DNA of 64,000 bases from a virus: positions 64,001 through 128,000 of IMG/VR virus record IMGVR_UViG_3300042923_000502; one strand, 5' to 3'. The position numbers and the translations under genes are program-made. Under the pieces are notes generated by a model. The model searched no databases. It was not told where the DNA came from and saw only the letters and a program-made list of their open reading frames with translations. Below, piece after piece: positions 15,196 through 63,955 of the stretch. Numbering within the stretch: the first letter of the stretch is position 1; every line of letters begins with the position of its first letter.

Positions 15196-15924
15196 ATGGC
15201 TATTGTTTTTATTGACGATGAAATTCGCGGACAATTGGCTAACTCTATTAAATTCTCAAGAGACTTTTACGCAAAACCAAGCAACATTTTATTGGAGCAT
15301 CCAAATGGAGAAGATTATATTGTATTGAAGAATAGACATTTTTATAATCACGACAAACAAATTCGTCCATCAGATATAAATGAATATACTAAGTTAGAAG
15401 AAAGAGTTGTTTACAATACTATTCTTAATGGTGGTTATCATATGGTGGCAAGAGAATTGAATGTAAATGGAATGAATCTCATTATTGACAAAGATTTTCT
15501 AAATCCAAATGGACAAAGAATTTTAGAGGAGATGATTAGTGTGAGTGAGGAAAACAACTTTGAAATTGGAGACAAGGTAGTGCCGACTGGCGATAGTTTA
15601 CACTATCCAATAGATGAAACTACTGCTTGGAAAGGTGCAAAACAAATCAACCAGCCATTCCTTTATGTTGTTGGATTTGGTAAAATTAAGGGAAAGTGTT
15701 CGGTAAATGTTAATTATGTAAAAAATGGGTGTCCACTTAGCTATTTTACAAAAGAAAATCTTAAACATTATGAGGAACAAAAAATAGGTGTTGCAGAATC
15801 GGAAGAAGAAGAACAAGAATATACCAACAGTGAATTTGAATATACGGTCGAAGAGTTGATTTTTCTCATTGAAACAGGAATTCTTCAACCTCAAGACGTT
15901 CTATTTGTCAAACGTGTAAAATAA
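15196..15924 (+). CDS. GDKVxP paralog family member 1 (family domain in the C-terminal half)
   Basis: FEIGDKVVP...QPFLYV...LIETGIL...D. Confidence 0.7.
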   Translation: MAIVFIDDEIRGQLANSIKFSRDFYAKPSNILLEHPNGEDYIVLKNRHFYNHDKQIRPSDINEYTKLEERVVYNTILNGGYHMVARELNVNGMNLIIDKDFLNPNGQRILEEMISVSEENNFEIGDKVVPTGDSLHYPIDETTAWKGAKQINQPFLYVVGFGKIKGKCSVNVNYVKNGCPLSYFTKENLKHYEEQKIGVAESEEEEQEYTNSEFEYTVEELIFLIETGILQPQDVLFVKRVK

Positions 15925-15932
15925 TGAATACA

Positions 15933-15966
15933 AGTGATAGATAAAACCAAACTTTTATCTATCACT
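15933..15966. repeat. Palindromic site 1
   Basis: AGTGATAGATAAAA-CCAAAC-TTTTATCTATCACT. Confidence 0.95.
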
Positions 15967-16298
15967 CAAAGGAGAGAGTAAAATGATGGAGATTAACTAT
16001 ATGAATATTGGAGAATTTGCTGATGATGGCTATTTGCAAGAAGTTAATAGAAGATTCTTTCATCCTCTTGGATTAGCTCTTGAAGTTAACACTCATGAGG
16101 ACGGAAGTAAGACTTTAGGCGGGATTTGGGACTACCGCGAAAGTCCAACAGGAGTTTACTTTGCCGATTCTATTACAAAGCTTGAGAAGTTCAAAAGTCG
16201 TGCGGAGAGATTCGATGAATTATTTCAGAAAAAGCTGCTTGAGCGCTATAACCTTCTAGGATATGGGATTCAAGAACCTTATAAGGGAGACGATGAGA

Positions 16299-16607
16299 AT
16301 GTATAAAATAGGTGATAAAGTACGACCAGTAGCTAAAACTGTAGGAATGCCGTGGGATCAGTGTGGTGCTATTCGTGAAATGGAAAGACTAAATCAAGAT
16401 TTCCTTTATGTTACCTACGTTTACAATAGGAACACATTTGGTTGCAATGTTATGGATGAAGATATTGTATTGAGTGAATTTGCTCTTAGTGATCTTGAGC
16501 CGTATGAAGAGTCTTCAAATCTCATAGAAGTAGACAGAACTTCGCTACTTCAATTGTTGCAAGAAAACTTTTTCAAGGAAGATGTTCGGTTTTTCATATC
16601 TAAGTAA
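16299..16607 (+). CDS. GDKVxP paralog family member 2
   Basis: YKIGDKVRP..KTVG...QDFLYV. Confidence 0.7.
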   Translation: MYKIGDKVRPVAKTVGMPWDQCGAIREMERLNQDFLYVTYVYNRNTFGCNVMDEDIVLSEFALSDLEPYEESSNLIEVDRTSLLQLLQENFFKEDVRFFISK

Positions 16608-16632
16608 TAGATAAAATGTGAATTTTATCTAT
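16607..16632. repeat. Palindromic site 2
   Basis: ATAGATAAAA-TGTGAA-TTTTATCTAT. Confidence 0.95.
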
Positions 16633-17136
16633 GGAGGAACGAGGTGAGCATAATGACGACAACTAAGCGTCAAGTTATTTATGATGAATATGGAAACATA
16701 AAGTATACATCACGTGAGGTTGAAGTAAAATCGGCAAATCAAGTATTGTTTGAATTCTCCATTGGTCTTGCAATCGTTGCATGTGTCTTACTATTAGTAT
16801 AGGAGTGATAATGTGTCAACAATTCCTGATAGAGCAATATGGTTTTTTGAATCGGAAATGAAAAGTCAATTTGTAGGATACTCAATCGAAAGAGTATCTG
16901 ATCATCTTGAATGTATCACAATCAAGTCTAAGACTTTATCAAGATATAAATCGTTTCTTGGCATAAAATATTTTAAAGAGTATATTATTTTCGAAAAAAA
17001 AGCTCAACTTTGACTATGAATTTGTAGCGTATTATTTTGGACGCGAATTTCTCATTAAATGTGCCGTTAATGATGATACAAAAGAAGTTTACTGGAAAGT
17101 AAGAAGAATATTTAATGAAAATGGAGGAATTTATTA

Positions 17137-17742
17137 ATGGAATCTAATCGTAAATACAAAATCGGTGATAAGGTTATTCCATTTCAAAAGACAGTAGGTA
17201 TTTATGGAAATCTAAGTGATTCTATTGTATGGAAGACAGCAAAAGACAATGACCAGCAATTTCTTTATATAACAAGAATTGAAATCTTAGAAGAAAGAGA
17301 CGATGTTTATTTTTACGTTTTAGACTCAGAAAAAGATAGTAAAACAGGTGACTACTTTAATGAAGAAGATTTTGTGCCATTCTCAGAAAACAAGTCACAG
17401 TCATTAAAATATCATCTTGACAAAATAAAGGAACTTGGATACTTTGTTGTTAAAAGTGAATACGAAAACCATGTCAGTGTATTAATTACAAGTCCACTTG
17501 AATTTGACTTAGACTCAACAGAAAATGTCCCAAATTATGGAGATTTGATGGAATTGGATGAATTCATTGACATGTGTGATTGCGGAAGTCTCATTGATTA
17601 TGATGGTTGTGGAGACATTGTTTACAATAACAAAGTTATATACCATGGCATTTATCCTTCTGATGTGGAAGTATATCAAAAACAATTAGAAGATTTACAA
17701 AAAGAGCTTGGCAAAATACAGATTATGTGGTATAATAAGTAA
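17137..17742 (+). CDS. GDKVxP paralog family member 3 (with an extra C-terminal domain)
   Basis: YKIGDKVIPFQKTVG...QQFLYI. Confidence 0.7.
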   Translation: MESNRKYKIGDKVIPFQKTVGIYGNLSDSIVWKTAKDNDQQFLYITRIEILEERDDVYFYVLDSEKDSKTGDYFNEEDFVPFSENKSQSLKYHLDKIKELGYFVVKSEYENHVSVLITSPLEFDLDSTENVPNYGDLMELDEFIDMCDCGSLIDYDGCGDIVYNNKVIYHGIYPSDVEVYQKQLEDLQKELGKIQIMWYNK

Positions 17743-17848
17743 TGTACAAAAGAGATATAAAATGTTGCACTTGGAGCGATAAGCTCCAAAATTTTTACCT
17801 ACCGGGTCTGAGCCAGTGATCAGTCGAAAAATAAATGATCATTAGCTC

Positions 17849-17877
17849 TTGACAAGTGACAGATAAAATGATATAAT
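17849..17877 (+). promoter_or_regulatory. Consensus SigA promoter with the repeated motif in its spacer
   Basis: TTGACA-agtgacagataaaatga-TATAAT. Confidence 0.85.
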
Positions 17878-17950
17878 AAAGACCTAGCGTGAAAGAAGTT
17901 AGTAAGTGCTTCACAAATATAAGATAAAATTACATGGAGGTAATAACAAG

Positions 17951-19030
17951 ATGGCAAAAGAAAAAGAACAGAAGGAATTGGTACAAACTAAATCTAACTT
18001 TACATTCAAAGGTATTGTAGATGGATTAGACAAAGACAATGCTTGGAAAGAAGACACAATCGGCAAAGGTAAAAGCAAAGGCAAAGCTTATCGTGCTATT
18101 CGTTTCCAACTTCAAACAAGTCCAACAAACAAATTGTCCGTAGAGTTGTTTGGTATGGAACAAGATTATGTGTATCCTTATAGCAAAGCCGAAAAAAAAT
18201 CTAAGAAAACCGAATTCTCTAAGCGTAACAATCTTCCAAAAGGCTATCACATCATTGGTATTAACGTAGGTCTTGAACAAAATGAAGCGGGTAAGAATAT
18301 TCGCAAGAGCTTAGTAGATTATGATGCCGCAGAGTATATTTGGGATAACCTTGAGAATGGTGATAGTGTTACGGTAAGTGGTGAAGTTGCTTTCTCAACT
18401 TACGAAAATTCCGAAGGAACCGTAATTGATCAAACAAAGTTTATCATTAAAAACATTTATCGTGAAAAAGACCCTATCAACTTCAATGATGAAAAGTTCG
18501 AAGAAGTAATTGCTTTCGATCAAGAAATTGTGTTCGTTGAGTCCGAATTCGTCAAAGAAGAAGGCGCGGTATATGTTAGCGGATATACAATTCAATATGG
18601 TAACAAGTTTACACCAGCTAAATTCGTCATTCGTCCAGAAGGAAATAAGAGCATTGAAAAAACCGCAAATGCCTTTGTTAAGAAAATGAAAGGTGGAGAC
18701 TTTGTTAAGGTATATGGTGTAGCCTTGAATAAAGCCGAAACGGTTGAAGTTGATGCTTCCGAAGTTGAGGATGATGAAGAAGATATTTTTGGTGGCGTTA
18801 AGCCAAAAGGCTATGAAAAGAATGCAATTACAAGCTATACTCAAGAATTGCGTATCACAGGCGCAGATGGTTCCACTTACGTCAAAAGCTTGTATGATCT
18901 TGATACAGACTTCGTAATTGAGGAACTTGTGGAAGAAGAAGTTGACTTTGGAGACGATGATGACGACTCTATTGACTTTGGTGGAGATGGAAAAGTATTA
19001 GATATTAGTGACGATGATTTACCTTTTTGA
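17951..19030 (+). CDS. Putative single-stranded DNA-binding protein
   Basis: OB-like segments (GDSVTVSG, GDFVKVYG), acidic tail ending DDDLPF, next to a recombinase-like ATPase. Confidence 0.7.
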   Translation: MAKEKEQKELVQTKSNFTFKGIVDGLDKDNAWKEDTIGKGKSKGKAYRAIRFQLQTSPTNKLSVELFGMEQDYVYPYSKAEKKSKKTEFSKRNNLPKGYHIIGINVGLEQNEAGKNIRKSLVDYDAAEYIWDNLENGDSVTVSGEVAFSTYENSEGTVIDQTKFIIKNIYREKDPINFNDEKFEEVIAFDQEIVFVESEFVKEEGAVYVSGYTIQYGNKFTPAKFVIRPEGNKSIEKTANAFVKKMKGGDFVKVYGVALNKAETVEVDASEVEDDEEDIFGGVKPKGYEKNAITSYTQELRITGADGSTYVKSLYDLDTDFVIEELVEEEVDFGDDDDDSIDFGGDGKVLDISDDDLPF

Positions 19031-19120
19031 TCAAATCGTAACAAATAGAAGATAAAATAAATAACATGGAGTGTTGGTAACACAACACTCCAAAACAAAA
19101 TAATAGGAGGAATTTTATAA

Positions 19121-20191
19121 ATGTCAAGACTAGGCAATGTAAAGATTAATGTCCCTCAAGTGAACCTCAAAGATTATGTGTGGCTGGTTCCTGGTATTCC
19201 AAAGGCAGGTAAAACATCTTGGTTTGCGCAAATTGTAGAACAATACTTTGGTGATGCAAACAAAGGTATGCTTCTTGGATTTGAAAAAGGTTATCAAGCT
19301 TTGCGTGTTCGTGCAACGGATGTTGAAGACTGGGATGACCTTGAAGAAATCGTTGAAGATTTGATTGACAACAAAAAAGAACTTGGCATTGAATTTATTG
19401 GGATTGATACCGCAGACGTAATGTATGATATGGCAGTCAACCAAGTAATTAAAGAGTGGAACGCTAAGAATCCTCAAAAACGCACTAAAGACATTGGTGG
19501 CGTTGGAGCTAAAGGCAAATCAGATTCCGGTTTTGGTGTTGGTTATGCTCATGTCAAGAAAAAGATTCGTGATGTAACGGATAAAATTCAAAAAGCAGGA
19601 TACGGTCTTGCTATCCTTACTCACTCTAAAGATAAAAAGATTGAGCAAAAGGATGGTCTTGAATATGATCAACTTACAATTTCTCTTGCAGCTACAGCAC
19701 GTGAAATTTTCGTTAATATGGCTGACTTCATTATGTTTATCACGGTTGAGAAAGAAAAAGTAGACGATGTTATCATGACAAAACGCTACATGTACTTCCG
19801 TTCCGATGGTTACGTTGAAGCAGGAAGCCGTTTTAAAAATGTTCCAGAGCGTATTGAATATAGCATCCAAGGATGTATTGACGTATTTAAGAATGCCGTT
19901 CAATCAGAATTTGATAGTGGTGTGAGTCTTGAACAAATCAAGCAAGAACAAGCTGCGCGTAAAGATAAGGCAGCAGAAGCTTATATTGAAGAACAAAAGG
20001 CGCTTGATACACCAGAAGGATTGATTGCTATTCTTGATACAAAAATTAAGGCTTTGTCTGACGAACAAAAGACCGAAGGTAAGATTAGTGAGAAGTTCAA
20101 GAAGGCGCTTGGCGGTTCTAACAATTACAAGAAAGTCGATGATGTTGAACTTTTGAAAAAATGTATTGACATTGTAGATAGCTTGGCTTAA
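19121..20191 (+). CDS. AAA_24 / Sak4-like ATPase (recombination)
   Basis: GIPKAGKT, FEKGY, IGIDTAD, LTHS. Confidence 0.75.
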   Translation: MSRLGNVKINVPQVNLKDYVWLVPGIPKAGKTSWFAQIVEQYFGDANKGMLLGFEKGYQALRVRATDVEDWDDLEEIVEDLIDNKKELGIEFIGIDTADVMYDMAVNQVIKEWNAKNPQKRTKDIGGVGAKGKSDSGFGVGYAHVKKKIRDVTDKIQKAGYGLAILTHSKDKKIEQKDGLEYDQLTISLAATAREIFVNMADFIMFITVEKEKVDDVIMTKRYMYFRSDGYVEAGSRFKNVPERIEYSIQGCIDVFKNAVQSEFDSGVSLEQIKQEQAARKDKAAEAYIEEQKALDTPEGLIAILDTKIKALSDEQKTEGKISEKFKKALGGSNNYKKVDDVELLKKCIDIVDSLA

Positions 20192-20201
20192 AATGGTAAG
20201 A

Positions 20202-20254
20202 GTAGCTTCACACAAGTATAAGATAAAATAAAAGTCGGCTTTGTGTGAAGCTAC
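20202..20254. repeat. 14-bp inverted repeat with a motif copy in its loop
   Basis: GTAGCTTCACACAA/TTGTGTGAAGCTAC; ACAAGTATAAGATAAAAT at 20212. Confidence 0.85.
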
Positions 20255-20282
20255 AAATCCTATAGATATGAGAGGTAGCTAG

Positions 20283-21089
20283 ATGAATACTAAGAACGTA
20301 GTTATTGCAGGAATCATTGCTCTATCGGTAGTGTTGGGAGGTTGTACCCAAGCCGAAGCAAATGGGGGCAATAATGAAGTTGCTAAAGTTCCTACATTGA
20401 GTGCTGACGTACCGCTTAATGTAGAACTACCTTATTTGTACAGTCAAAAACCTTTTTCGTTTACAACGAAATCAACTTTGACAAAAGATGTGCAAAAAGA
20501 AGGAGTGCAAGATGCTCCTAAAGTAACTTCTGCTAAGGAAATATTTGACAATCTACCAAAACAACCAAAGGTAGTTGAAGTAGTTGTTAAAGAAGTGTCC
20601 AAGGCGAAGGAAGATGATTTTAAGTATTATAGTAACATTCCTCTTGACAAAGAATTGCAGAGGAAAATTTCTTCATTCGCAAAAAAGAAAGGGATTGAAG
20701 TAACTCTTGAATATGCTTTAATGGCACAAGAGAGTCATTTTGATCCAACATTGATAAGTCCTACACGTGATCATGGAATTGCTCAAATCAATAAGAGTAA
20801 TTTCAAGTGGATTACAAAGGACTTAAAAAATGAATATGGAATTAATTTTACATGGTCAAATCCATACGAAAATGCGGTTGCAAGCATTCATTATTTGGCA
20901 TTAATCAAGGAGTCGTGGAAAGGTAAGGTAAGCAACAAGAATTTAATTCCTACCGTTTTACTTTCATACAACATGGGTACTAGCAATGCAAATAAGTATT
21001 TAAAGAATCATAGTGCAACGGATTGGAAGTACGTTCAAAAGGTATTGAAGTATAAATCTATGATTGAAAGAGGGGAAAAGGTTGAGTAG
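20283..21089 (+). CDS. Lipoprotein with SLT lytic transglycosylase domain
   Basis: Signal peptide with lipobox LGGC; AQESHF, GIAQI, SYNMG, YVQKV. Confidence 0.82.
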   Translation: MNTKNVVIAGIIALSVVLGGCTQAEANGGNNEVAKVPTLSADVPLNVELPYLYSQKPFSFTTKSTLTKDVQKEGVQDAPKVTSAKEIFDNLPKQPKVVEVVVKEVSKAKEDDFKYYSNIPLDKELQRKISSFAKKKGIEVTLEYALMAQESHFDPTLISPTRDHGIAQINKSNFKWITKDLKNEYGINFTWSNPYENAVASIHYLALIKESWKGKVSNKNLIPTVLLSYNMGTSNANKYLKNHSATDWKYVQKVLKYKSMIERGEKVE

Positions 21090-21618
21090 AGTAGGAGAAA
21101 TAGTTACCATCAATAAAGAACTTTTCAATGATGTAATTAGTAGTTATTACGACAAAGAGAATGCAAAAGATCTGACACATGAATCAAAATTTGAAGTTAT
21201 TAAGTACAATCAAGATTGGATATATCCAATAAAGGCTTCTTCTGTGGATTATCCAAATATTATTGTTGACCTTAAAGAAATAGAGATAAACGAGTTGGTT
21301 AAAGCTAAAAATGACACCTACGAAGACAAAGGTAGAGAACTTGGTGCGCTTGTTGATACCAAACAAGCTGCATATGGTAATGCTATTGCTCAAACTTATG
21401 AAGTTGTTAAGGCATTCATGACTCCTTACTTTGACGAAAAAACTAAGACTTATACTATTCCTCAAAGCTTGCTTCAACATCTATTGTTGCAAGTACGAAT
21501 TATAGATAAACAAAATCGCATCTTCAATAATCCAAATGGAGATTTGATGTCTGAGAGTCCTTACGGTGATCTCGGTGGATACGGCTTACTTGGTGCGAAC
21601 ATGGTTATTGACAAATAA
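21082..21618 (+). CDS. DUF1599/Nmad1-like domain protein
   Basis: KQAAYG...DKQNRI...ESPYGDLGGY. Confidence 0.6.
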   Translation: MSRVGEIVTINKELFNDVISSYYDKENAKDLTHESKFEVIKYNQDWIYPIKASSVDYPNIIVDLKEIEINELVKAKNDTYEDKGRELGALVDTKQAAYGNAIAQTYEVVKAFMTPYFDEKTKTYTIPQSLLQHLLLQVRIIDKQNRIFNNPNGDLMSESPYGDLGGYGLLGANMVIDK

Positions 21619-21641
21619 AAGATAAAATGAAATTACATTTG

Positions 21642-21680
21642 ATGCCTACTATTAATATTGATAGTAGGCATTATTTTTAT
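21642..21680 (+). terminator. Intrinsic terminator
   Basis: ATGCCTACTAT/ATAGTAGGCAT plus T tract. Confidence 0.7.
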
Positions 21681-21682
21681 CC

Positions 21683-21711
21683 TTGACAAATGTAAGATAA
21701 AATGATATACT
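21683..21711 (+). promoter_or_regulatory. SigA promoter with motif in spacer
   Basis: TTGACA-aatgtaagataaaatga-TATACT. Confidence 0.85.
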
Positions 21712-22107
21712 ATCTACATTAAGAGCCGGATCAAATGAACAGGGAGGTAAACAATGGATAAACCATCTTTTATAGTAGGAGAGCCATATCTTAATTATTT
21801 TGACGTTATTAAGTACTTGCAAGAAAAGTACAAAATAACGGACAAACAAAAAAGAGAGTTTTGGGATTGGGTCTTAGATGATTCAATGAATGATGTTCAC
21901 AATGGTAGTTTCATCTATCTATCTATTAATCCTGAAACATTTTACAAAAGATTTTACATTAGAGACATTGAAGACTTCAACGATACTTATCCCAATGTCA
22001 TTGAGATAATTACATTGTTGTGGAATGAGTACCAAAAAGAAGATTTGAAATTCTATGTATCTTGGTAGCATTGACAAATGTAAGATAAAATAAAAGGAGA
22101 CGATAAA

Positions 22108-22458
22108 ATGTTGAACACTAAATTTTTTATTGGATCAAAAGTTAAACAACCTAAGAATGTTTATCTTCTTGACATCAAACTAATGCATGGAGATGCAGAC
22201 GCTTATACTCATTTGGAACTTGAATTTATAGAAAAAGAAAAACATGAGTTGATTGCTATTCTTGATATTTTAAGTCAATTGGGAGGACATCAAAACTATC
22301 GCAAGTATCATAATGTTCAAGGATTTGATGAACTTCTCTATTATGATTGGGATTTAGACAGCACATGTGATGGCATGTACCTTGCATCATATGATGGATA
22401 CAAATTGTATTACTTCAATGAAGATGGAGAGAAGTTTAACGTCAAAGTAATTAACTAA
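22108..22458 (+). CDS. Hypothetical protein, paralog of the next ORF
   Basis: LMHGDAD, GFDELL, YLASYDGY. Confidence 0.65.
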   Translation: MLNTKFFIGSKVKQPKNVYLLDIKLMHGDADAYTHLELEFIEKEKHELIAILDILSQLGGHQNYRKYHNVQGFDELLYYDWDLDSTCDGMYLASYDGYKLYYFNEDGEKFNVKVIN

Positions 22459-22475
22459 AAAGGGAGACGATAATT

Positions 22476-22865
22476 ATGCGCGGACAAAGATTGGTTGATG
22501 GGAATAGGATTGAAGAGTTAAAAGGTGTATATGAACTTGAAATTGAATTAATGCATGGTGATGCAGATGGATACTCCACAATAAAACTTTTGTTTAGTGA
22601 TGGCGGATATATTCCAAGCGAAAAGAAAAACGCTGTTGATGAAAGAGGAATGTTGCTTTCAACAATTTACGTTTTAGACCAATTGAGAGAATTAGATGTT
22701 GATGATTATCGTTCAATAGATGGGTTTGATGAATTACTAGGGAAGACATGGAAAAGAGATCATACTTATGACGATTATCTTGCATCTTTTGATGGCTATA
22801 CAATTAAACATTACCCTTCTTGGGATGGAGTTTACGAAGTTGAAATTGAACACTATGGATGGTAA
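22476..22865 (+). CDS. Hypothetical protein, paralog of the previous ORF
   Basis: LMHGDAD, GFDELL, YLASFDGY. Confidence 0.65.
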   Translation: MRGQRLVDGNRIEELKGVYELEIELMHGDADGYSTIKLLFSDGGYIPSEKKNAVDERGMLLSTIYVLDQLRELDVDDYRSIDGFDELLGKTWKRDHTYDDYLASFDGYTIKHYPSWDGVYEVEIEHYGW

Positions 22866-23540
22866 GGAGTGAACAACATGTTAGAAAAATGGCATCATGG
22901 AGGTGGTCATCATGGTAGGACACATGATGCAACCAAATTAGCACCTATAATGCTTAAACGTCCTAAGTCAAAAACACGCAAGTATGTTCCACCTCAACAT
23001 GGTTATATTGGTTTGTTTTTTGGTGATACCGCTAAGAAGTTAGCAAAGCAAAGACACAAGAAAAAGTCAAGAAGCTACAATAAAAAAATGTGCGAACAAT
23101 ACTAGGAGGATTTTAATGACAACAACAAACGAAAAATTTTATCTTGTAAAGTACGAAGACAATTGGGCAGATGAATTTGACATTTATGGATTTGAAATTT
23201 TTAATCAACGTCAATTCGATTTTTTGAATGTAGTCATTAACGACATTAGAAAAGTAGGAGACTTTGAATATTACTTTGGAACAAATGAATATATCGACTA
23301 CACTTCCGTACAAGGTGTTCGTAATGCATTAGAATTCAAAGAAATAAGCAAAGAAGAGTTTGAAACATTAAAGAAGCTTGGTTTAGGAGTTTATGGTGAA
23401 GATTTTGCGAGTTCTCTTGTTGAGCGCTATGTAGACCATTTAGAAGAAGAAGAATTTGAAGCTATTCAAAAAGAATGGGATTACTTCCTTGATGAATGGT
23501 CTAAAGCAAAGTGGAATAGAGAATAGGAGCGTGGAAGGAA

Positions 23541-25010: not shown

Positions 25011-25042
25011 CAAATGCAAGATAAAATGAAAGGCGGTTAATA

Positions 25043-27623: not shown

Positions 27624-28229
27624 ATGGCAAAAGAGGTTATGTGCAAACAATGCAAGAAAAAGTCATCTAAAGAAGAGATGGTTGTACATGTTCATGAAAC
27701 AAGCACAGGAAATAAAACTAAGATGAATTTCCATGAAGAATGTCTTGTAGTGTACTTAAAAGACAAAGAATTCAAAGAAAAGGAACAACAGGAAAAAGAT
27801 GAACTTAATGAAGTTGTTAAGCGTATTCACAATTTAGAAGTTGTTCCTTCTAATTTTTATAGAGACTATGTGGAACCTTTGCGTGGAGGATTCTTCAAAA
27901 GTGGTACAAAAGTAAAAAGATACAAAGAAGGAATTCCGTATAGTGTTATGAAGGATTCTTATCTCTTTATTGAAAAAACGGTTGAGTACTATCGTAAAAA
28001 TAAGGAATTTGATGGTTCTATGGGTTTTTTGAAGTATACGTTTAGCATTATGGTTGACAAGATGCCAATGGCTAAGAAGAAGAAAAAGCAAGAAGAATTT
28101 GCACAGGTAATTCAAAATGAGAATGCTAATATTCAACAATCTCATGAGGACATTATATTTGCAGAGCGTGAGTACAAATTTAAAAAGAAAAGTAATGGTG
28201 GGGTTGACTTGTCAGATCTTTTAGATTAA
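27624..28229 (+). CDS. Replication protein (helicase loader-like by position)
   Basis: CxxC...HxxC; directly upstream of the helicase. Confidence 0.5.
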   Translation: MAKEVMCKQCKKKSSKEEMVVHVHETSTGNKTKMNFHEECLVVYLKDKEFKEKEQQEKDELNEVVKRIHNLEVVPSNFYRDYVEPLRGGFFKSGTKVKRYKEGIPYSVMKDSYLFIEKTVEYYRKNKEFDGSMGFLKYTFSIMVDKMPMAKKKKKQEEFAQVIQNENANIQQSHEDIIFAEREYKFKKKSNGGVDLSDLLD

Positions 28230-28244
28230 GGGTAAGGTGGTAAA

Positions 28245-29858
28245 ATGGCAGTAAAGAAAAGTGTAGCACCAGAGATGAAGAAAGCGGACTACTTGGTTAA
28301 GGCACAAGAAGAGGTATTGATATCGGAAGCATATCTTACAGGATTGTTTTGGTCAAATCCAGAACAATATGCATTCTTTCCAGAGGAAAAGATTAATCGT
28401 AAGACGTTCTTAAATCCAGTGTGGGGTTTTTACTTTGGACTTGGAATGCACATGTACAAAGAGGGTATTCGTGTATTTGACGATATCTCTATTATGAAAC
28501 ACGTAAAAGATATAAATGCAGAAGCGGTGTTTGACAAATACGGTGGATTTGAAACCGTAAATGAAGTAATGGAAGAAGTAGAAGGAAGACTTGAAAATCT
28601 AGATGCATATTATGCAAACATCAAGAAATATAGACTTCTTTGTGATCTATCAGATTTATTTGGTAGTCAAGTATTTAAGAAGTCGGAGAAATACGATTAT
28701 CGTCAACTTGACAAAGAAACATTGTTCAATTTTTGGATGGATAAGGTCAACAAGCTTGGTCTTGATGGTGATGCGAAATACGATGAACACTTCCTCTTAG
28801 AAGGTCTTGAAGCTGACATTAAAGAGTGGAGTGAAAGTCCAGATATTGGATTGGAATTTTATAATAGTCCACTTATGTCTAAAATATGTACGGGTTGGGA
28901 CTTTGGCAACATGTACATTTATGGCGGATTTGGTGGATCAGGCAAAACTTCATTTACATTTAATAAAGTGGTTATGTCTTGTATTGAAAGCCAAGAAAAA
29001 CTATTGATTATTGCAAATGAGCAAGGTATTAAGGAATTCAAGAAGCTACTTATCACAACGGCATTAGGAATTAAGAAAGAATACTTGAAACGTCAACGGT
29101 TAAATGAAGGTGAATTTACCGAAGAAGAGAATAAAAAGCTTGAAAACGCAGTAAAATGGGTTAGAGAGTTCTCTCAAAATAATAGTAAACTTATAGCTTT
29201 CGTTTTTATGGAAGACTATGTGATTCCAGACGTTAAAAAAATTGTACGTCACTATTCTAATCGCGGATACAAGTCGGTAATCGTAGATACAGCAAAACCA
29301 AGTGAGTCCGCAGGTGACAAACAACGTTGGGAAATCTTCACAGATGATTTTAAAGAGTTGTATAAGCTATGCAGACCAAATGGCGGCGGTTTGAATCTTA
29401 GAATGTGGGTTAACGTTCAATTAGCGGACAATGCGTTAGGGAGAAGGTTCTTGGACGAAGCCGCACTAGGAGACTCTAAGAAGATTAAAAACGAAGCATC
29501 TGTTATGTTTATGGGGAGAGTGGTATGGGCTGACGAATTTGAAGGTGGAGACAAAGAATTGAAAGTCTTTAAATGGGTCAAGAAAGACTCAGAAGAAGAT
29601 GACAATCCTTTTTCCGAAGACGGAAAATCAGATGATGGATTTCATTTGCGTAAAAAGGAATTTGCACTTAAACCATTCTACACAGACAAACACGGCAATC
29701 AACATCCCAATCAGTATCTTTTATTATTCACTCCTAAGAACAGAAGAGGAACAGATCAGAAAGGAGGTCAAGCGGTATTGGTCTTACAATCCAACTTCAA
29801 CAACAACAGTTGGCAGGAGGTAGGTTGGACAGTTATTCACAATGATAGAAACTATTGA
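28245..29858 (+). CDS. DnaB-like replicative helicase
   Basis: Walker A GFGGSGKT, ANEQ, Walker B IVDT, VQL, KNRRG. Confidence 0.85.
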   Translation: MAVKKSVAPEMKKADYLVKAQEEVLISEAYLTGLFWSNPEQYAFFPEEKINRKTFLNPVWGFYFGLGMHMYKEGIRVFDDISIMKHVKDINAEAVFDKYGGFETVNEVMEEVEGRLENLDAYYANIKKYRLLCDLSDLFGSQVFKKSEKYDYRQLDKETLFNFWMDKVNKLGLDGDAKYDEHFLLEGLEADIKEWSESPDIGLEFYNSPLMSKICTGWDFGNMYIYGGFGGSGKTSFTFNKVVMSCIESQEKLLIIANEQGIKEFKKLLITTALGIKKEYLKRQRLNEGEFTEEENKKLENAVKWVREFSQNNSKLIAFVFMEDYVIPDVKKIVRHYSNRGYKSVIVDTAKPSESAGDKQRWEIFTDDFKELYKLCRPNGGGLNLRMWVNVQLADNALGRRFLDEAALGDSKKIKNEASVMFMGRVVWADEFEGGDKELKVFKWVKKDSEEDDNPFSEDGKSDDGFHLRKKEFALKPFYTDKHGNQHPNQYLLLFTPKNRRGTDQKGGQAVLVLQSNFNNNSWQEVGWTVIHNDRNY

Positions 29859-29876
29859 TTGAAAGGTGTGGTTTGC

Positions 29877-30470
29877 TTGATTGTTACAAGTGAAATAAAA
29901 AATGATTTTATATTGGGGTCATCTCTTGGAGATGGCTCCATAAAGAAAAGTGCTAGAAGCGCAAATTACTATATGAAATTTGGTCATTGTGAAAATCAAT
30001 ATGACTATTTGATTTTTAAATCAAAAGTATTGAAAGACATTTGCATGGAGGACTTAAAGGTTAGACGAAGTATAGACAAGAGAAGCAAATCAACTCAACC
30101 TTTTTATGAGTTTACCACAAGATCAAATCCTATATTTCATAAATTCAAGGAAATGAGTCATTTAGATCATATTAGAGAGCTAAATATAAATAGTTTGCTC
30201 ATATGGTATTTAGACGATGGAAGTATTAGACCTGATAGATACGGACTAAGAATATCTTGTGCTAGATTTACTATGGAGGAAGTAATTGAAACTTGTTCCA
30301 TTATCAATGAAAAATTTAATACAGAATTTTCGATAGTAAATAGCAAAAGCAAGAAGCATGGTCATGATGGAATAGGTCTAAAAAAAGATGGAACAAGTTA
30401 CTTCCTTGAAATTATTAAGAAATCTGATTTTTACAATGAAATTCCAGAGTGTATGAGATATAAACTTTGA
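29877..30470 (+). CDS. Free-standing LAGLIDADG endonuclease
   Basis: ILGSSLGDGSI and LLIWYLDDGS. Confidence 0.85.
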   Translation: MIVTSEIKNDFILGSSLGDGSIKKSARSANYYMKFGHCENQYDYLIFKSKVLKDICMEDLKVRRSIDKRSKSTQPFYEFTTRSNPIFHKFKEMSHLDHIRELNINSLLIWYLDDGSIRPDRYGLRISCARFTMEEVIETCSIINEKFNTEFSIVNSKSKKHGHDGIGLKKDGTSYFLEIIKKSDFYNEIPECMRYKL

Positions 30471-31154
30471 GAGGTGTACAAATGTTATATAAAATTAAAT
30501 CAAACGAAGATTTGCACACTAGATGGACTAAGCTTGCAAAGAAAACTTCTAAACGTCTTAACTCCATATCGTTTTTACAGAACGATATGGAGGTTTCCAA
30601 AGAAGAGATGAATAAATGGTTTAGAGAGTCATTAGAAGATATTCAAAAGATGGATCAAGACTTTAAGGATACGGTTCAAGAGATGTTAAACATTAGAAGT
30701 GATGCAATCAAATACTTGAAAGCTCAAATCGAACTTAATGAGAGGGGAAATAAGTAATGAGCAAACATTTGTGGGAAGTAGATCATTCGTATTATTGTGG
30801 TGTATATGGTGGAGATAGATATGACAATCTCGATGATTTCCTTGACGAGTGGGGCGATTGCGATCCAGATTACAATCTATTGTTTAGATGGGACTGGAAT
30901 GAGTATGATCCAGATGAATTTGAAGATGATGAACTCGATGAAGATCACTCTACCAAAGATATATTGAATATCTTTTGGGTACAACAACGAAAAGGAAGCC
31001 TTTATTCGTGTAAAGTGAGAGTGTCTAAGGATGAAGAAGATAAAGTAAAGGAATTTCTTGAACCAAGATGGAGCCACTTAGCATCCTTATGGGAGCCTTT
31101 GGTATGAAGAACTTACTGAAAAAATATTTTAACAAAAATAAGGGAGATGTTAAA

Positions 31155-31484
31155 ATGAACAAAATGGTAATCAATGGAGTGTCATACGAAGTTCCTCAAG
31201 GTGCGAGTCTATCAATTAACAATGGAGTTGTAAAGGTCAATGGTCAAGTAATTACTTCTGGATTAAGTGGTGTAGTTGAACTAAAAGTAGAAGGAGACAT
31301 TGGACAATTACGAACGGATGCAAGTGTAAGCATGAATGGCAATGTCTTAGGCGACATTGACGCTGGCGGTAGCGTTTCGATTAAAGGCAATGTAAAAGGC
31401 AATGTAGATGCGGGTGGAAGTGTGTCATGTGGCAATGTCGGTGGGAATGTTGATGCTGGTGGAAGTATTAGTATGAAACGATGA
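31155..31484 (+). CDS. Beta-solenoid repeat protein
   Basis: G(N/D)(V/I)DAGGS(V/I) repeats. Confidence 0.7.
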   Translation: MNKMVINGVSYEVPQGASLSINNGVVKVNGQVITSGLSGVVELKVEGDIGQLRTDASVSMNGNVLGDIDAGGSVSIKGNVKGNVDAGGSVSCGNVGGNVDAGGSISMKR

Positions 31485-31503
31485 ATGAAATGAGGTAATT
31501 AAA

Positions 31504-32106
31504 ATGGGTAATTTTATAGATTTAACTGGGAAAAATTTTGGATCGCTCAAAGTAATAGAAAGAGCGGAAAACCAGAATAAGAGAGTTATGTGGCTATGTC
31601 AGTGCAATTGTGCAAAGAATACAATAAAGAAAGTTCAATCCTCTCATTTGATATCAGGGAAAATAATTTCATGTGGCTGTGTCAAAGGAACAAAACACGG
31701 TTTAAGTCAAACAAAAATATATAATGTTTATGTGAGCATAAAACAAAGATGTTATAATGAAAATTGTGATATCTACATCAATTATGGAGAAAGAGGTATA
31801 CGTGTATGTGAAGAGTGGTTAGGAGAGAGTGGATTTATATCTTTTTACAATTGGTCTAATGCAAATGGATACAAAGAAGGTCTGTCAATCGACAGAATTG
31901 ATGTTAATGGCAATTACGAGCCGTCAAATTGTAGATGGGCTACAATTAAAGAGCAGAGTTTAAACAAGAGAAGTTCTACGCTTTTGACATTAAAAGGAGT
32001 AACGAAAAATATTTCCGAATGGTCAAAAGAATACAATATACCTGTAAATACAATAAGAGGTAGAATAAAGAAAGGAAAAAGTTTAGATGATTTGTTTGAC
32101 AAATGA
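31504..32106 (+). CDS. HNH-like homing endonuclease
   Basis: DLTGKNFG, WLCQCNC, SCGC, YGERGI, SIDRIDVNGNYEPSNCRWAT. Confidence 0.88.
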   Translation: MGNFIDLTGKNFGSLKVIERAENQNKRVMWLCQCNCAKNTIKKVQSSHLISGKIISCGCVKGTKHGLSQTKIYNVYVSIKQRCYNENCDIYINYGERGIRVCEEWLGESGFISFYNWSNANGYKEGLSIDRIDVNGNYEPSNCRWATIKEQSLNKRSSTLLTLKGVTKNISEWSKEYNIPVNTIRGRIKKGKSLDDLFDK

Positions 32107-32124
32107 AAGATAAAATGATATAAT
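32096..32124 (+). promoter_or_regulatory. Consensus SigA promoter with motif in spacer
   Basis: TTGACA-aatgaaagataaaatga-TATAAT. Confidence 0.85.
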
Positions 32125-32156
32125 AAAATCAAAGTTCATGAGGTGGTGACTATCAA

Positions 32157-32309
32157 TTGAAAAAAAAGAAACGCAAAAAGACTATTATTGATCTCATGAG
32201 ACAATCAAGGAGTAGAGAAAGCATTATAAATCCTACTACAAAAGTTATCCCCAATAAAAAAGCTCGACAAAGCAAAAACGCTTGTAGACGTAAGGTAGGC
32301 GAAGAGTAA
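32157..32309 (+). CDS. Small basic protein (50 aa, not in the ORF track)
   Basis: TTG start after GAGGTG RBS; stop overlaps the primase ATG. Confidence 0.55.
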   Translation: MKKKKRKKTIIDLMRQSRSRESIINPTTKVIPNKKARQSKNACRRKVGEE

Positions 32310-33352
32310 TGTCAGACCTTCACGACATCAAAAAGGCTATCTATGAAGAAGGTAGAATAGAAGAAGTTCTTGACCTTTTGGGATGTAAAAATATACGTCC
32401 CGAAAGGAATAGGATTGTTGCTTCACTTCCTAACGGTAAGAATTTACGTTCCGTTCAAGTTAAGATGAATGAGCATCTTTCGTCAAGCATTAGAACAAAG
32501 CAAATCAATGGCGACATATTTAGCATTGTGTCCTACATTAAATTTAATTGTTCTACTAAAGCTGAAATTTATGAAAACCTATTTGACGCTAAGATGTGGA
32601 TTGTCGAAGAGTTGGACTATTATCATCTTATAAGCAAAGATAGAAGCAAGGCAAAAAAACAAACATACAATAGTTGGCTTAAAGATATGCGCAAAAAGAG
32701 AAGCAAGAAGATCAATCTTGAGAACTTGCATCCTAACATACCAATTCCAGAATCGACTAAGGATAGATATTTGATGGAACCTTATTATCCTTGGATCAAA
32801 GAGGGGATAAGTTGGGAGACTCAAAAAGAGTGGGAAATAGGATTTTGTTGGGAAAGTCATCGGATTATTACTTTGATACGCAATATCACAGGAGAACTTA
32901 TTGGTGTTAAAGGTAGAGCAATGGACGATAACAATCCATGGAAATATCTTTATGTTGAAGAAATGAACAAGAGCATAGAGTTATTTGGGTTGCATAAAAC
33001 TTTGCCTTATGTTCTTGAAGAAAAGGAGATTATCCTATTTGAAGGATATAAGAGTGTATTTAAGGCGTGGCAAATGGGATATAAGAACGTTGCAAGTATT
33101 GAAGGTGACGATATTTCCGATGCTCAAATTGCTTTAATCAAGAGTTTTGGTATTGACATTAAGATTACAATGTGCTATGATAAAGACAAATCGGAAGAGA
33201 GTATTAGAGAGCAAGTTTCAAAGTTTAAAAATAGAAAAGTCTTCTACACATTAGATGATGAAGACTTGTTATTAGATAAGCAATCTCCGGTTGATAGAGG
33301 GTTGAAGGTTTGGAACAAGCTTTACAAAAATAAAATTGAATTTACCCCTTGA
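32309..33352 (+). CDS. DNA primase (TOPRIM)
   Basis: GVKGR, KYLY, LFGLH, FEGYKSV, YDKD; located in the replication module. Confidence 0.85.
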   Translation: MSDLHDIKKAIYEEGRIEEVLDLLGCKNIRPERNRIVASLPNGKNLRSVQVKMNEHLSSSIRTKQINGDIFSIVSYIKFNCSTKAEIYENLFDAKMWIVEELDYYHLISKDRSKAKKQTYNSWLKDMRKKRSKKINLENLHPNIPIPESTKDRYLMEPYYPWIKEGISWETQKEWEIGFCWESHRIITLIRNITGELIGVKGRAMDDNNPWKYLYVEEMNKSIELFGLHKTLPYVLEEKEIILFEGYKSVFKAWQMGYKNVASIEGDDISDAQIALIKSFGIDIKITMCYDKDKSEESIREQVSKFKNRKVFYTLDDEDLLLDKQSPVDRGLKVWNKLYKNKIEFTP

Positions 33353-33377
33353 CTTTCATCGGGAAATTTGATATAAT
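33349..33377 (+). promoter_or_regulatory. SigA promoter followed directly by a motif copy (33379)
   Basis: TTGACT-17-TATAAT. Confidence 0.8.
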
Positions 33378-33851
33378 AACAAATGTAAGATAAAACAAAA
33401 GGTTAGGAGGTCAAAGAACGTCCTACATGTCTTGCAAATTTCTTTAGTTAATTTACAAGTGTAAGAAAAAATAAAAAATACAAACTTATGGAGGAATTAC
33501 AAATGGCTCAATACTACGCGACAGGAACAAAGAAAGTTGAAAGCAAAAACGAACAAGGGAAGAAAGTTATTACGGAAGTTCCAGTTGTGATTGAATTTGA
33601 CGCAATGCTTGTGAAGACTCGTGTTCAAGCGGTCAACGAAGCAAAACGTTGGGCTAAAAAGGACAATATTGTTCTTGATGGCATTGACGGTGTACATGTG
33701 TTGCAAGGTACACAAAAAGGTGGGGATACGTTGACAAAGCGTATTCAAAAAATGAAAACCGCAGGCACACTTCCTAAGTTTTAACATGGAGAAGGGCTAT
33801 CCCTTCTCTTGTAAATAAAGTACAAATACAAAATAAAATGAAAAGAGGAAA

Positions 33852-34454
33852 ATGAAGATGGATGTATACAAAGCGTATGAAGAACAATTGAAGGTTACAC
33901 GACAAATGGTGGAGCAATTGGTTCTTGCAAATGAAAAGTTGGAAGCAATTCTTGTAAAAATCTCCGAAGGTACACAAAAGGGTGGAATTGAAGAATTCCT
34001 TGGCGAAATCTTTGGTGGACTTGCAAACACTGTAAATGGTCAAGAGCTTGCAAAAGAACTTGAAGATTATGGTGACGATGATTATGATGATGATGATTGG
34101 GACGGAGATTATGAGGATTACGTCGATTATGAGGATGAAAATGATCATGTTTATCTTATTGAGCTTGCCATGAATGATGTTGAGGAACTTTTGGATTCTC
34201 CACAATTGAAAACAACTTTTTACGGAAATACTCTTTACGGATATGACCCAGAAGTAAACATTCACGACATTCACTATGTCGTTGATTATGACAAAGGAAC
34301 CGTAACAGCAAGCTTCATTGTTGATGGAAACGTGTTGAAGTCTGGAGTTGCCGTTTGCCATCCAGAAGATGTGTTCCTCGAAGCAACAGGTAGAGCAATT
34401 GCCACTCGTCGCTTGTTTGACCTTGACATTCCAGAATCTTTGCTTCAAAAATAA
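33852..34454 (+). CDS. Hypothetical protein with an acidic linker
   Basis: DYGDDDYDDDDWDGDYED tract; C-terminal GVAVCHPED.F...GRAIA. Confidence 0.6.
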   Translation: MKMDVYKAYEEQLKVTRQMVEQLVLANEKLEAILVKISEGTQKGGIEEFLGEIFGGLANTVNGQELAKELEDYGDDDYDDDDWDGDYEDYVDYEDENDHVYLIELAMNDVEELLDSPQLKTTFYGNTLYGYDPEVNIHDIHYVVDYDKGTVTASFIVDGNVLKSGVAVCHPEDVFLEATGRAIATRRLFDLDIPESLLQK

Positions 34455-35094
34455 TCGAATAGGAGATGTGACTTATGACGGAAAAGCAACTAGACATCAT
34501 TGAGTTTACTAAAAACGTTCTAAACAAGCACATCTTCGATTACGAAGAGAAGATTTTAAGAAACTATGAAGAATTCCGTTCGTGGTCTACCTATGATGAA
34601 TGGGTAAGACCACAGAAACGGGAAAACCAGTACATTTATAATATTTGGATGTGCTACAAGGAATACCTAAACGGAACGCTTGATTTGAACGCAATGAAAA
34701 TTTCAAACTTGGTGGTGAAGTAAGTTGGATGTTCAAGTTGTCGTAAAGAAAGAAGAAAGAAAGCTTGAAACAGGAGATATTATAGTGGTCATCTATGCAG
34801 GGAAGACTTACGTATTGTTGGTTTCAATGATTCAAAGAGGAGAGTGTCCATATATGCTTGTTCACTTAGATGGAAGTGGAATATGGGCTTCCGAAAAAAC
34901 ACTTGAATTGTTGGAGAAAAACATTAGGAACAATGACATGGACTTTTATGAATACGAATATACAATTTATAGTGCATCGGAATACGTCTTGCAACTAACT
35001 AAAAAATAAACATCAAAAACATCAAAGCCCATAGAGACGTAAAAGTTTTTATGGGCTTTACTTTTAATAAGATCATACAATAGGAGGATATAAT

Positions 35095-35484
35095 ATGAAG
35101 AAGTTTTTGATTTTGATTTCATTGGCAACTATGTTTATTCTAAGTTCATGTTCGGATGCTGACATTGCATCGGAAAATTTGTCAAAAGCCGCAGATAACT
35201 TTGAAATTAATAGACGAGTTGTATTTTACAATGGGATTACGGACACTTACTTGTTGAGCATTGAGGGACTTTGTTCGTTAGGTAACAATGATGATCGCTC
35301 TAAACAAGTAACAGTAACATGTAAAACATCTCCAACTACGTATAAGAAGCATTTCTTGGGATTGTCGGACAATGTGACATACTTTGCGGAACAACTTGAA
35401 CCTGCTAGTGTTAGCGCATATCATTATCGTGTTATATTTAAGCCACAAGCTATCTTGCCAGATGTTGATATGAGAGTTGAATAA
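35095..35484 (+). CDS. Phage lipoprotein
   Basis: Signal peptide and lipobox LSSC. Confidence 0.7.
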   Translation: MKKFLILISLATMFILSSCSDADIASENLSKAADNFEINRRVVFYNGITDTYLLSIEGLCSLGNNDDRSKQVTVTCKTSPTTYKKHFLGLSDNVTYFAEQLEPASVSAYHYRVIFKPQAILPDVDMRVE

Positions 35485-35498
35485 AGGGGGACGATAAA

Positions 35499-35843
35499 AT
35501 GAATAACTTTAAAGTTGGAGATAAGGTTGTACCGTTTCAAAAGTCTAAAGGAAAAAGTTTTGAAGAATCTAGATCATTGGAATTGGCAAAAAATATTGGT
35601 CAAAAATTCCTTTATGTTTATATGATTGATGGAGATAATGTCATATGGTGTAGTGTAGATGGGAATCAATTAAATTCAGAAGCATTTGATAAAACTGATT
35701 TAAATTTATATGTTGGTGACTTTTACAATACCGAACATGCCAAGTACGAAGAACCAGTATTGTACAATTTAGGGTTCATTTTAAAGTTGTTAAAAGATGG
35801 AATACTGAAAGAAGACGATATGTTCATTATGCGTAGAGTATAG
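35499..35843 (+). CDS. GDKVxP paralog family member 4
   Basis: FKVGDKVVPFQKS...QKFLYV...LLKDGILKEDD. Confidence 0.7.
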   Translation: MNNFKVGDKVVPFQKSKGKSFEESRSLELAKNIGQKFLYVYMIDGDNVIWCSVDGNQLNSEAFDKTDLNLYVGDFYNTEHAKYEEPVLYNLGFILKLLKDGILKEDDMFIMRRV

Positions 35844-35865
35844 ATAAAACGTTTCTTTTATCTAT
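35840..35865. repeat. Palindromic site 3
   Basis: ATAGATAAAA-CGTTTC-TTTTATCTAT, overlapping the TAG stop. Confidence 0.95.
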
Positions 35866-35887
35866 GAGACAATAAGGAGGAAGCAAA

Positions 35888-36238
35888 ATGTATAAAAAAG
35901 GCGATAAAGTAGTTCCACATAGCAAAAGTATAGGATGTTCCTTGAATGATAGCGAAGAATGGGAAAGAGCGCAGGCAAGTGGTCAAAATTTCCTTTATGT
36001 TACTAGCATTAGCAATGAAGACGATTATTGGTGTGCATTCACGAAAAACGATGATGACTCAGAATGTTTTTCACAGGTTGATTTGACCCCATATATCGAA
36101 GAAAAATATCAAGAAAATGGAATTTTGCTCAATTTTTCAGGCGTAAAACTCAATGAATACAAGGTAAGTGACATACTTGAACTGGTAAATAAGGGCATTC
36201 TCAAGGAAACAGATGAAATTATCGTGGGTCGAAAATGA
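35888..36238 (+). CDS. GDKVxP paralog family member 5
   Basis: YKKGDKVVPHSKS...QNFLYV...LVNKGILKETD. Confidence 0.7.
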   Translation: MYKKGDKVVPHSKSIGCSLNDSEEWERAQASGQNFLYVTSISNEDDYWCAFTKNDDDSECFSQVDLTPYIEEKYQENGILLNFSGVKLNEYKVSDILELVNKGILKETDEIIVGRK

Positions 36239-36245
36239 AAAAGTG

Positions 36246-36271
36246 ATAGATAAAACTTCGATTTTATCTAT
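36246..36271. repeat. Palindromic site 4
   Basis: ATAGATAAAA-CTTCGA-TTTTATCTAT. Confidence 0.95.
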
Positions 36272-63929: not shown

Positions 63930-63955
63930 ATAGATAAAATCTATATTTTATCTAT
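63930..63955. repeat. Palindromic site 5
   Basis: ATAGATAAAA-TCTATA-TTTTATCTAT. Confidence 0.95.

Follow-up and report, generated by a model that had tools for sequence, protein, structure and literature searches.

A conserved intergenic palindrome at junctions of accessory gene modules in an uncultured Bacillus-type phage

Phage genomes are mosaic, and the sequences at which their modules are joined can rarely be identified. A short palindrome that recurs in a 64,000-nucleotide stretch of phage DNA (the window; bases 64001 to 128000 of IMG/VR record IMGVR_UViG_3300042923_000502, here G000) raises the question of whether it marks such joints and, if so, how. G000 is an uncultured Bacillus-type phage of ~170 kb, represented by a single contig of 170,562 bp with 34% G+C. 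An initial annotation made from the sequence of the window alone described five copies of the palindrome, four of them at the ends of members of one divergent gene family, and proposed that they are the boundaries of gene cassettes or binding sites for a dimeric protein. Here, we compared G000 with its relatives and found that a 26-bp element lies at almost every junction examined. We conclude that it is a conserved intergenic motif that marks, and probably mediates, modular exchange.

The palindrome, ATAGATAAAA-N6-TTTTATCTAT, occurs as five exact copies in the window, where none is expected and none appeared in shuffled sequences; allowing up to three mismatches yielded no additional copies there. 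As first described, the arms are invariant, the spacer is always 6 nt long and differs in sequence each time, and four of the five copies sit at or within 12 nt of the stop codon of a family member (Table 1). Over the whole of G000 there are 10 copies, 6 exact and 4 near-exact (genome coordinates 9881, 52825, 53190, 59248, 79937, 80607, 99840, 100246, 127930, and 163709), all 26 bases long with the 10-6-10 layout and each with a spacer sequence of its own. No copy with a spacer length other than 6 was found in the genome, and no other palindrome recurs in it. The sites are scattered across 150 kb amid unrelated genes. All 10 are intergenic, at or just past a stop codon, with a TAG within the left arm often providing the stop of the preceding gene and the next ribosome-binding site following 0 to 16 nt 3′ of the palindrome. 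They accompany both gene orientations, and the order of stop codon, palindrome, and ribosome-binding site is the same among the minus-strand genes at 163709 and 9881. The arms have AGATAAAA in common with an abundant 18-nt box, which is the dispersed motif whose core the initial annotation had already recognized in the arms.

Scans of IMG/VR and metagenomes for the exact palindrome returned mostly single chance matches; the kin recovered were phage G001 and one metagenome fragment (L090) only, and a scan of IMG/VR with the 18-nt box again returned G001 only. Searches of GenBank phages with G000 DNA and with one protein of the gene family (family 1) found no match. G001, the sole collinear relative in IMG/VR (~75 to 80% nucleotide identity), retains all 10 orthologous sites, with 197 of 200 arm positions and 57 of 60 spacer positions identical. 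The homologous flanks are 77% identical, and the spacers are conserved beyond that level (p = 2e-4). Further partial relatives, L278/L279 and L285 (the last reached via a lipoprotein gene), have the same spacers at the same positions. Across the 10 paralogous sites and four to five phages, the arms are invariant, the only changes, such as those in L278, in L285, and at site 9881, being one-sided and uncompensated.

Gene gains and losses do break at the palindrome, as the cassette proposal had anticipated. Between G000 and G001, the alignment breaks in 9 of 10 palindrome-bearing intergenic regions versus 71 of 230 others (31%; Fisher p = 2.7e-4). As controls, breaks fall in 39 of 128 regions in the same central part of the genome and in 20 of 61 regions of similar length, and intergenic regions with the 18-nt box are not enriched for them. 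In ungapped views of the two genomes, six sites have one flank on which homology stops precisely where the palindrome begins or ends, and site 9881 has unrelated DNA on both sides. Each indel is bounded by the palindrome at one end only, the other end being a gene start or stop. Among G000, G001, L278, and L285, there is no palindrome-to-palindrome deletion or inversion, no hybrid spacer, and no site lost or gained.

The five sites of the window illustrate the pattern. Site 15937 is identical in G001 and has the same spacer in L278; its left edge coincides with the end of homology to G001, which has an additional 75-amino-acid gene there. Site 16607 is identical in G001 and L278, and comparison with L278/L279 and L285 brings the number of distinct gene contents to its right to three (0, 2, and 4 extra genes). 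At site 35840, the upstream paralog is missing from G001 and L285, and homology resumes exactly at the left edge. At site 36246, the genes up to a RecJ-like gene are replaced in G001, and homology stops 2 nt past the right arm. Site 63930 has two changes in the G001 ortholog, and a 520-bp insertion in G001 lies 27 nt downstream.

Table 1 Features of the window (positions are those of the 64,000-nucleotide stretch)
Feature	Position	Strand	Details
Palindrome copy	15937..15962		Exact; spacer CCAAAC; starts 12 nt past the stop of the open reading frame 15196-15924
Palindrome copy	16607..16632		Exact; spacer TGTGAA; first A shared with the TAA of the open reading frame ending at 16607
Palindrome copy	35840..35865		Exact; spacer CGTTTC; left arm contains the TAG stop of the open reading frame 35499-35843
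Palindrome copy	36246..36271		Exact; spacer CTTCGA; starts 7 nt past the stop of the open reading frame 35888-36238
Palindrome copy	63930..63955		Exact; spacer TCTATA; after an unrelated 96-amino-acid open reading frame
Family-1 paralog	15196..15924	+	242 amino acids; family domain in C-terminal half
Family-1 paralog	16293..16607	+	Start uncertain: 16263, 16293, or 16299
Family-1 domain fused to a second domain	17137..17742	+	No palindrome after it
Family-1 paralog	35499..35843	+	Absent from G001 and L285
Family-1 paralog	35888..36238	+	Palindrome on both sides
18-nt box filling the spacer of a TTGACA-17-TATAAT promoter	17849..17877	+	Contains AGATAAAA
Further 18-nt box examples	17922, 19050, 22083
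AAA_24 (Sak4-type) protein	19121..20191	+	Pfam PF13479, E 5.6e-22

Outside the window, three other genes stand beside palindromes. A 315-amino-acid gene with a CapR-homology domain (genome 163731 to 164678, minus strand; L329:432-1376) is present in G000 only and is inserted such that the TAG inside palindrome 163709 is its stop codon; a Vsr/DUF559 nuclease was considered as its identity and rejected, with Pfam giving the CapR-homology domain only. One of the two HNH endonuclease genes in the genome (59290 to 59733) begins right after palindrome 59248, and on the metagenome fragment L090 (751-1143) a homolog of the other lies ~200 bp past a palindrome.

How widely is the element distributed? 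The RecJ/YorK-like protein of G000 has ~40% identity to its counterparts in Tsamsa, PBC2, FADO, and PJN02, large Bacillus siphoviruses known as the “Tyroviruses,” which take their name from three tyrosine recombinases (PMC9703825). The arm core, used as a query, matched Tsamsa and FADO at many places. The core, ATAAAA-N6-TTTTAT, is present with a 6-nt spacer 11 times in G000, 10 times in G001, 30 times in FADO, 28 times each in PJN02 and 2S-4, 20 times in Tsamsa, and 6 times in the first 95 kb of SPbeta; other spacer lengths occur zero to two times in these seven genomes. In Tsamsa, FADO, and SPbeta, too, it follows a stop codon and precedes a ribosome-binding site, and in Tsamsa it is 0 to 3 nt upstream of the Shine-Dalgarno sequence, with several copies in the Tsamsa/FADO set having no gene start after them. 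The SPbeta sites (NC_001884: 2628, 12495, 24127, 39885, 44416, and 57147) include several inside a single late operon transcribed by YonO, where they lie between cistrons (PMC5467207). The arms of the core extend to only 6 to 7 bp in Tsamsa and FADO and to 10 bp in G000. On these sequence comparisons, the G000 palindrome appears to be a long-armed local form of a dyad element common to the SPbeta/Tsamsa (“Tyrovirus”) supergroup. A term search of the Tsamsa and Tyrovirus papers returned no palindrome or intergenic repeat apart from a different, inverted-repeat “attP.” Among the large group of Bacillus phages that share the 18-bp core are FADO and Tsamsa, both of which can be cultivated, and SPbeta, a genetic model in which the function of the core can be tested directly in B. 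subtilis.

This distribution bears on the link between the element and the paralogs. The divergent family recognized in the initial annotation is real, with GDKV.P and Q.FLY invariant in the alignment, and the two exceptions pointed out there, the member at 17137 that lacks a site and the site at 63930 that follows an unrelated gene, hold as well. Residues 1 to 70 of the protein encoded at 35888 to 36238 were modelled as an SH3-like barrel (pLDDT >90), and a fold search with this family-1 model gave weak SH3/Tudor/KOW-like rows only and no clear structural relative. The G001 ortholog (102730-103122) of the gene at 17137 consists of the C-terminal domain alone, so the SH3-like domain would have been gained or lost as a unit. 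Genome-wide, the paralog association persists in G000, in two families rather than one: a second pair (genome 52867-53193 and 58925-59251) likewise ends in the palindrome, and a site directly follows six of the seven paralogs. In G001, a site follows about 4 of about 8 loci counted as paralogs (10 matched). Extra family-2 members in G001 lie at 72483-72884, 80087-80449, and 122141-122497, and one of them replaces the gene past the CTTCGA palindrome. A profile search with family 1 reached distant viral loci, none with the palindrome. The association does not extend to Tsamsa and FADO, from which both families are absent, and for this reason we regard it as the local history of duplicated gene-plus-site units rather than a defining property of the element. 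The presence of the core as an ordinary element between cistrons in Tsamsa, FADO, and SPbeta, which lack these families, also argues against an integron-like system. The proposal of cassette boundaries thus stands insofar as breakpoints coincide with the sites, and the integron-like mechanism attached to it was not borne out, given one-sided indels, differing spacers, and the lack of hybrids.

Whether the element acts as DNA or as RNA can be approached from its folding. The G000 sites fold at −8.1 kcal/mol versus a background of −2.7 kcal/mol (individual sites range from −6 to −11), and the Tsamsa core at −3.3 versus −2.5 kcal/mol for random 30-mers, which is no better. Because the Tsamsa core folds like random sequence and the arm changes are uncompensated, the conserved feature appears to be the dyad sequence with its fixed spacer and not a stable hairpin. 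An RNA-level intercistronic signal (a weak insulating hairpin, a processing or stability site, or a translational operator), with breakpoints resulting only from location at cistron borders, would nevertheless account for much of what is seen. Every copy has a stop codon before it and a ribosome-binding site after it, in gene orientation on either strand; the Tsamsa ribosome-binding sites are within 0 to 3 nt; sites 15937 and 16607 have no promoter after them and are transcribed by read-through; SPbeta copies are carried within the single YonO-transcribed late operon (PMC5467207); the hairpins of G000 are more stable than background; and other post-stop hairpins are used in the same genome. 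Such a signal is harder to reconcile with an arm sequence fixed far more than pairing requires, with three arm changes that are never compensated, with a Tsamsa core no more stable than random sequence, or with the several copies that precede no gene start. No Rfam family matches. RNase III sites of the SP82/T7 type call for about two turns of double-stranded RNA, more than a stem of 10 bp in G000 or 6 to 7 bp in its relatives can offer, and covariation is likewise missing from the G000 sites and their relatives. On balance, we consider an RNA-level signal possible, though less probable than a site read on DNA.

Plain intrinsic terminators, by comparison, are very improbable. The hairpins are at gene ends, and one copy was flagged by a terminator scan, on the antisense strand only; the stems, however, are AT-rich, with no more than a single G-C pair in an arm, a U tract is lacking, the downstream gene is not preceded by a promoter of its own, and several GC-rich hairpins in the same genome reach about −27 to −32 kcal/mol against the −6 to −11 of the sites. 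The initial annotation had judged them poor terminators on the same grounds, adding the proximity of the next ribosome-binding site.

Some copies do touch promoters, which supports a site on DNA. The copy at genome position 9881 lies between a perfect promoter and a ribosome-binding site, and that of L090 is 8 nt upstream of a −35 element. At position 101376 of FADO (L295; the same in PJN02 and 2S-4), the spacer of the core is TTGACA, 17 nt before TATAAT, so that the dyad straddles the −35 element of a consensus promoter. An arm was also considered as a promoter element in itself; this was rejected, as AAAA is followed by T at only 3 of the 10 sites in G000 and 10 of the 20 in Tsamsa, and the distance to any −35 element does not fit.

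The inverted arms and fixed 6-bp spacer further support a DNA site, being the layout of the core sites of tyrosine-recombinase-fold proteins (10- to 13-bp arms and a 6- to 8-bp spacer). G000 encodes three proteins of this fold, a kind of gene that the initial annotation had proposed to look for elsewhere. One is an intact-looking XerA/XerC-like recombinase of 326 amino acids, with RKHRHY present, encoded among minus-strand genes that are probably structural. The palindrome could then be a true site-specific site, at which this enzyme inserts, excises, or exchanges the gene cassettes that it defines. Homology does stop exactly at arm edges, stop codons lie inside an arm as though genes had been joined to the site, one G001 insertion has a left half-site before the extra gene and a full site after it, and the orthologous spacers are better conserved than their flanks. 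The spacers themselves speak against this explanation: all 10 in one genome differ, which would block classical tyrosine recombination between sites, and identical spacers are found only between orthologous sites of different phages. Nor is there any site-to-site product among the four phages compared; the indels are bounded by the palindrome on one side only, and the arms of 6 to 7 bp in Tsamsa and FADO are short for a recombinase. Furthermore, a different, 11-6-11 site, the “attP” palindrome, has been proposed for the structural-module recombinase of the Tyroviruses (PMC9703825). We considered this “attP” as the identity of the G000 palindrome and rejected it, since its sequence differs and it is absent from G000, G001, and FADO. 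Taken together, site-specific recombination is an unlikely explanation.

The pattern of spacers would suit one special form of recombination, in which all sites share common arms for one enzyme and each site has its own 6-bp spacer as an address. With spacers conserved between phages and distinct within a genome, exchange would be confined to sites of the same address in two co-infecting genomes, and accessory genes would be swapped without scrambling gene order or deleting core genes. We give this address code little credence at present.

If a protein reads the dyad, which one might it be? The other two recombinase-fold proteins are a homolog of SPbeta YopP, with the second catalytic Arg changed to Lys as in YopP itself, and an MrpR-family protein (PF22822, 83.6 bits; PF22823, 47.1 bits) with 28% identity to YopR. 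Both look catalytically inactive from their sequences, and both are conserved in FADO and Tsamsa. The mrpR-like gene (genome 61502-62479; L328:1203-2177) lies after a YopQ homolog, 2.5 kb before the window starts, and likely encodes a master repressor, which would imply a temperate, SPbeta-like lifestyle. G000 encodes no serine recombinase and no sigma70 region-2 protein. In SPbeta, MrpR (YopR) is a recombinase-fold repressor that binds ten dispersed sites, all peaks having the SPBRE (PMC10516654). From six promoter regions named in that study, we derived the SPBRE as ATACA-N7-TGTAT within aCAAATAcAAAaAATATGTAT, which fills promoter spacers. The 18-nt box of G000, ACAAaTGtAAGATAAAAT, has ~45 copies genome-wide (in the window, across 4000-63600), always in gene orientation, and either fills the spacer of TTGACA-17-TATAAT promoters or directly precedes a ribosome-binding site; it is absent from FADO and Tsamsa. 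Because the box and the SPBRE share the ACAAAT start and the same two positions, the box is a better analog of the MrpR operator than the palindrome is. MrpR was initially favored as the palindrome binder and then downgraded, as SPbeta holds the SPBRE plus separate core sites, although in G000, FADO, and Tsamsa the promoter of the mrpR-like operon does have a core element 45 to 80 bp upstream of it. The distribution of the YopP-like protein matches that of the core, and this protein may be a candidate binder of the dyad. More generally, the Tyroviruses are defined by extra recombinase-fold proteins that are unexplained, and for these proteins the element is a candidate target.

The reader of the dyad could also be a conserved factor of the host, or the sequence could act through its physical properties, with phased A/T tracts of a 10-bp period favoring bending or cruciform extrusion and so breakage. 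The AAAA and TTTT tracts do lie 10 bp apart, as is seen directly in the sequence, and the core is identical in SPbeta, Tsamsa, FADO, and G000 despite protein identities of 25 to 40%. The strictness of the ATA/TAT ends and the restriction of 10-bp arms to one lineage, by contrast, point to specific reading, and we know of no Bacillus regulator consensus that matches the core. We regard this explanation, in either form, as improbable.

The reading that we tentatively prefer, while holding it open to revision, is that the palindrome is a dyad DNA site for a conserved dimeric protein and, at the same time, a short homology patch for module exchange. A dimer would plausibly read both arms on DNA, and the element would punctuate operons or regulate them, as a roadblock or an operator, rather than serve as a catalytic crossover site. 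With 26 bp identical between relatives whose neighboring accessory genes are not, the site can act as a patch of perfect identity at which co-infecting relatives would swap those genes. The Sak4-type protein of the phage is a possible agent of such short-homology recombination and might assist it, and gene-plus-site units could be duplicated. The element itself, its conservation, its position, its association with breakpoints, and its supergroup-wide core are observed, and we infer that it acts on the DNA level through a binder and that exchange is homologous rather than site-specific.

Several observations weigh against this preference. Every copy is transcribed and the Tsamsa copies abut the Shine-Dalgarno sequence, which suits a role in RNA or translation. 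For a phage protein and its site, it would be unusual to keep a core unchanged across lineages whose proteins are only 25 to 40% identical, which points toward a host factor or a physical property. The SPbeta core sites are separate from the SPBRE dyads that carried all ten MrpR peaks, so MrpR is not the obvious binder. The association with breakpoints between G000 and G001 could in part be due to the location of the sites among accessory genes that turn over quickly. Among FADO, PJN02, and 2S-4, which are 97% identical, indel edges fall in 12 of 29 element-bearing intergenic regions versus 32 of 202 others (p = 0.004), but matching for intergenic length or genome region removes the significance.

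One neighboring gene bears on the host of the phage. A beta-sandwich lipoprotein (PF25682; window 35095-35484) is 75 to 88% identical to thousands of proteins, many of them in Paenibacillus genomes and prophages. This could be a clue to the host, or the gene could be one that spreads broadly; as a tracer of the kin of G000 it was dropped, the gene being too widespread.

The palindrome resembles several known systems in part. Like integron attC sites, it stands one to the 3′ end of each small gene, but it comes without an IntI/attI/Pc platform and without an array, and its arms are invariant perfect repeats, whereas attC is structure-defined and imperfect. With dif, loxP, and pdif it shares inverted arms around a 6-bp spacer, and pdif-like sites resemble it further in lying beside accessory modules and in the variability of their spacers; unlike the core sites of tyrosine recombinases, it is symmetric rather than a XerC/XerD-type pair, and no site-to-site product was seen. 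The SPBRE/MrpR system likewise comprises about ten dispersed AT-rich dyad sites in intergenic DNA, and G000 has an MrpR-family protein; the SPBRE, however, fills promoter spacers, and ATAAAA-N6-TTTTAT lies outside the MrpR peaks in SPbeta. The stoperators of mycobacteriophage L5, bound by the repressor gp71, are likewise numerous and occupy short gaps between genes, close to stop and start codons, but they are asymmetric and follow the direction of transcription, a description that fits the 18-nt box and not the palindrome. In T4-type phages, promoter-early stem-loops (PeSLs) are short conserved intergenic motifs that flank small accessory genes, and they combine a sigma70 promoter with a working terminator; exchanges between two PeSLs occur, and mini-circles have been detected (PMC2839356; PMC4122927). 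The palindrome differs from PeSLs in having no promoter and no terminator features, in its perfect dyad and fixed spacer, and in that only one-sided junctions were seen. It shares with them the duplication of gene-plus-site units proposed above and the trait by which such motifs are recognized, namely, indels and replacements between close relatives that end at the motif in plastic regions of the genome, as they do at 9 of the 10 palindrome-bearing regions of G000 versus 71 of the 230 others.

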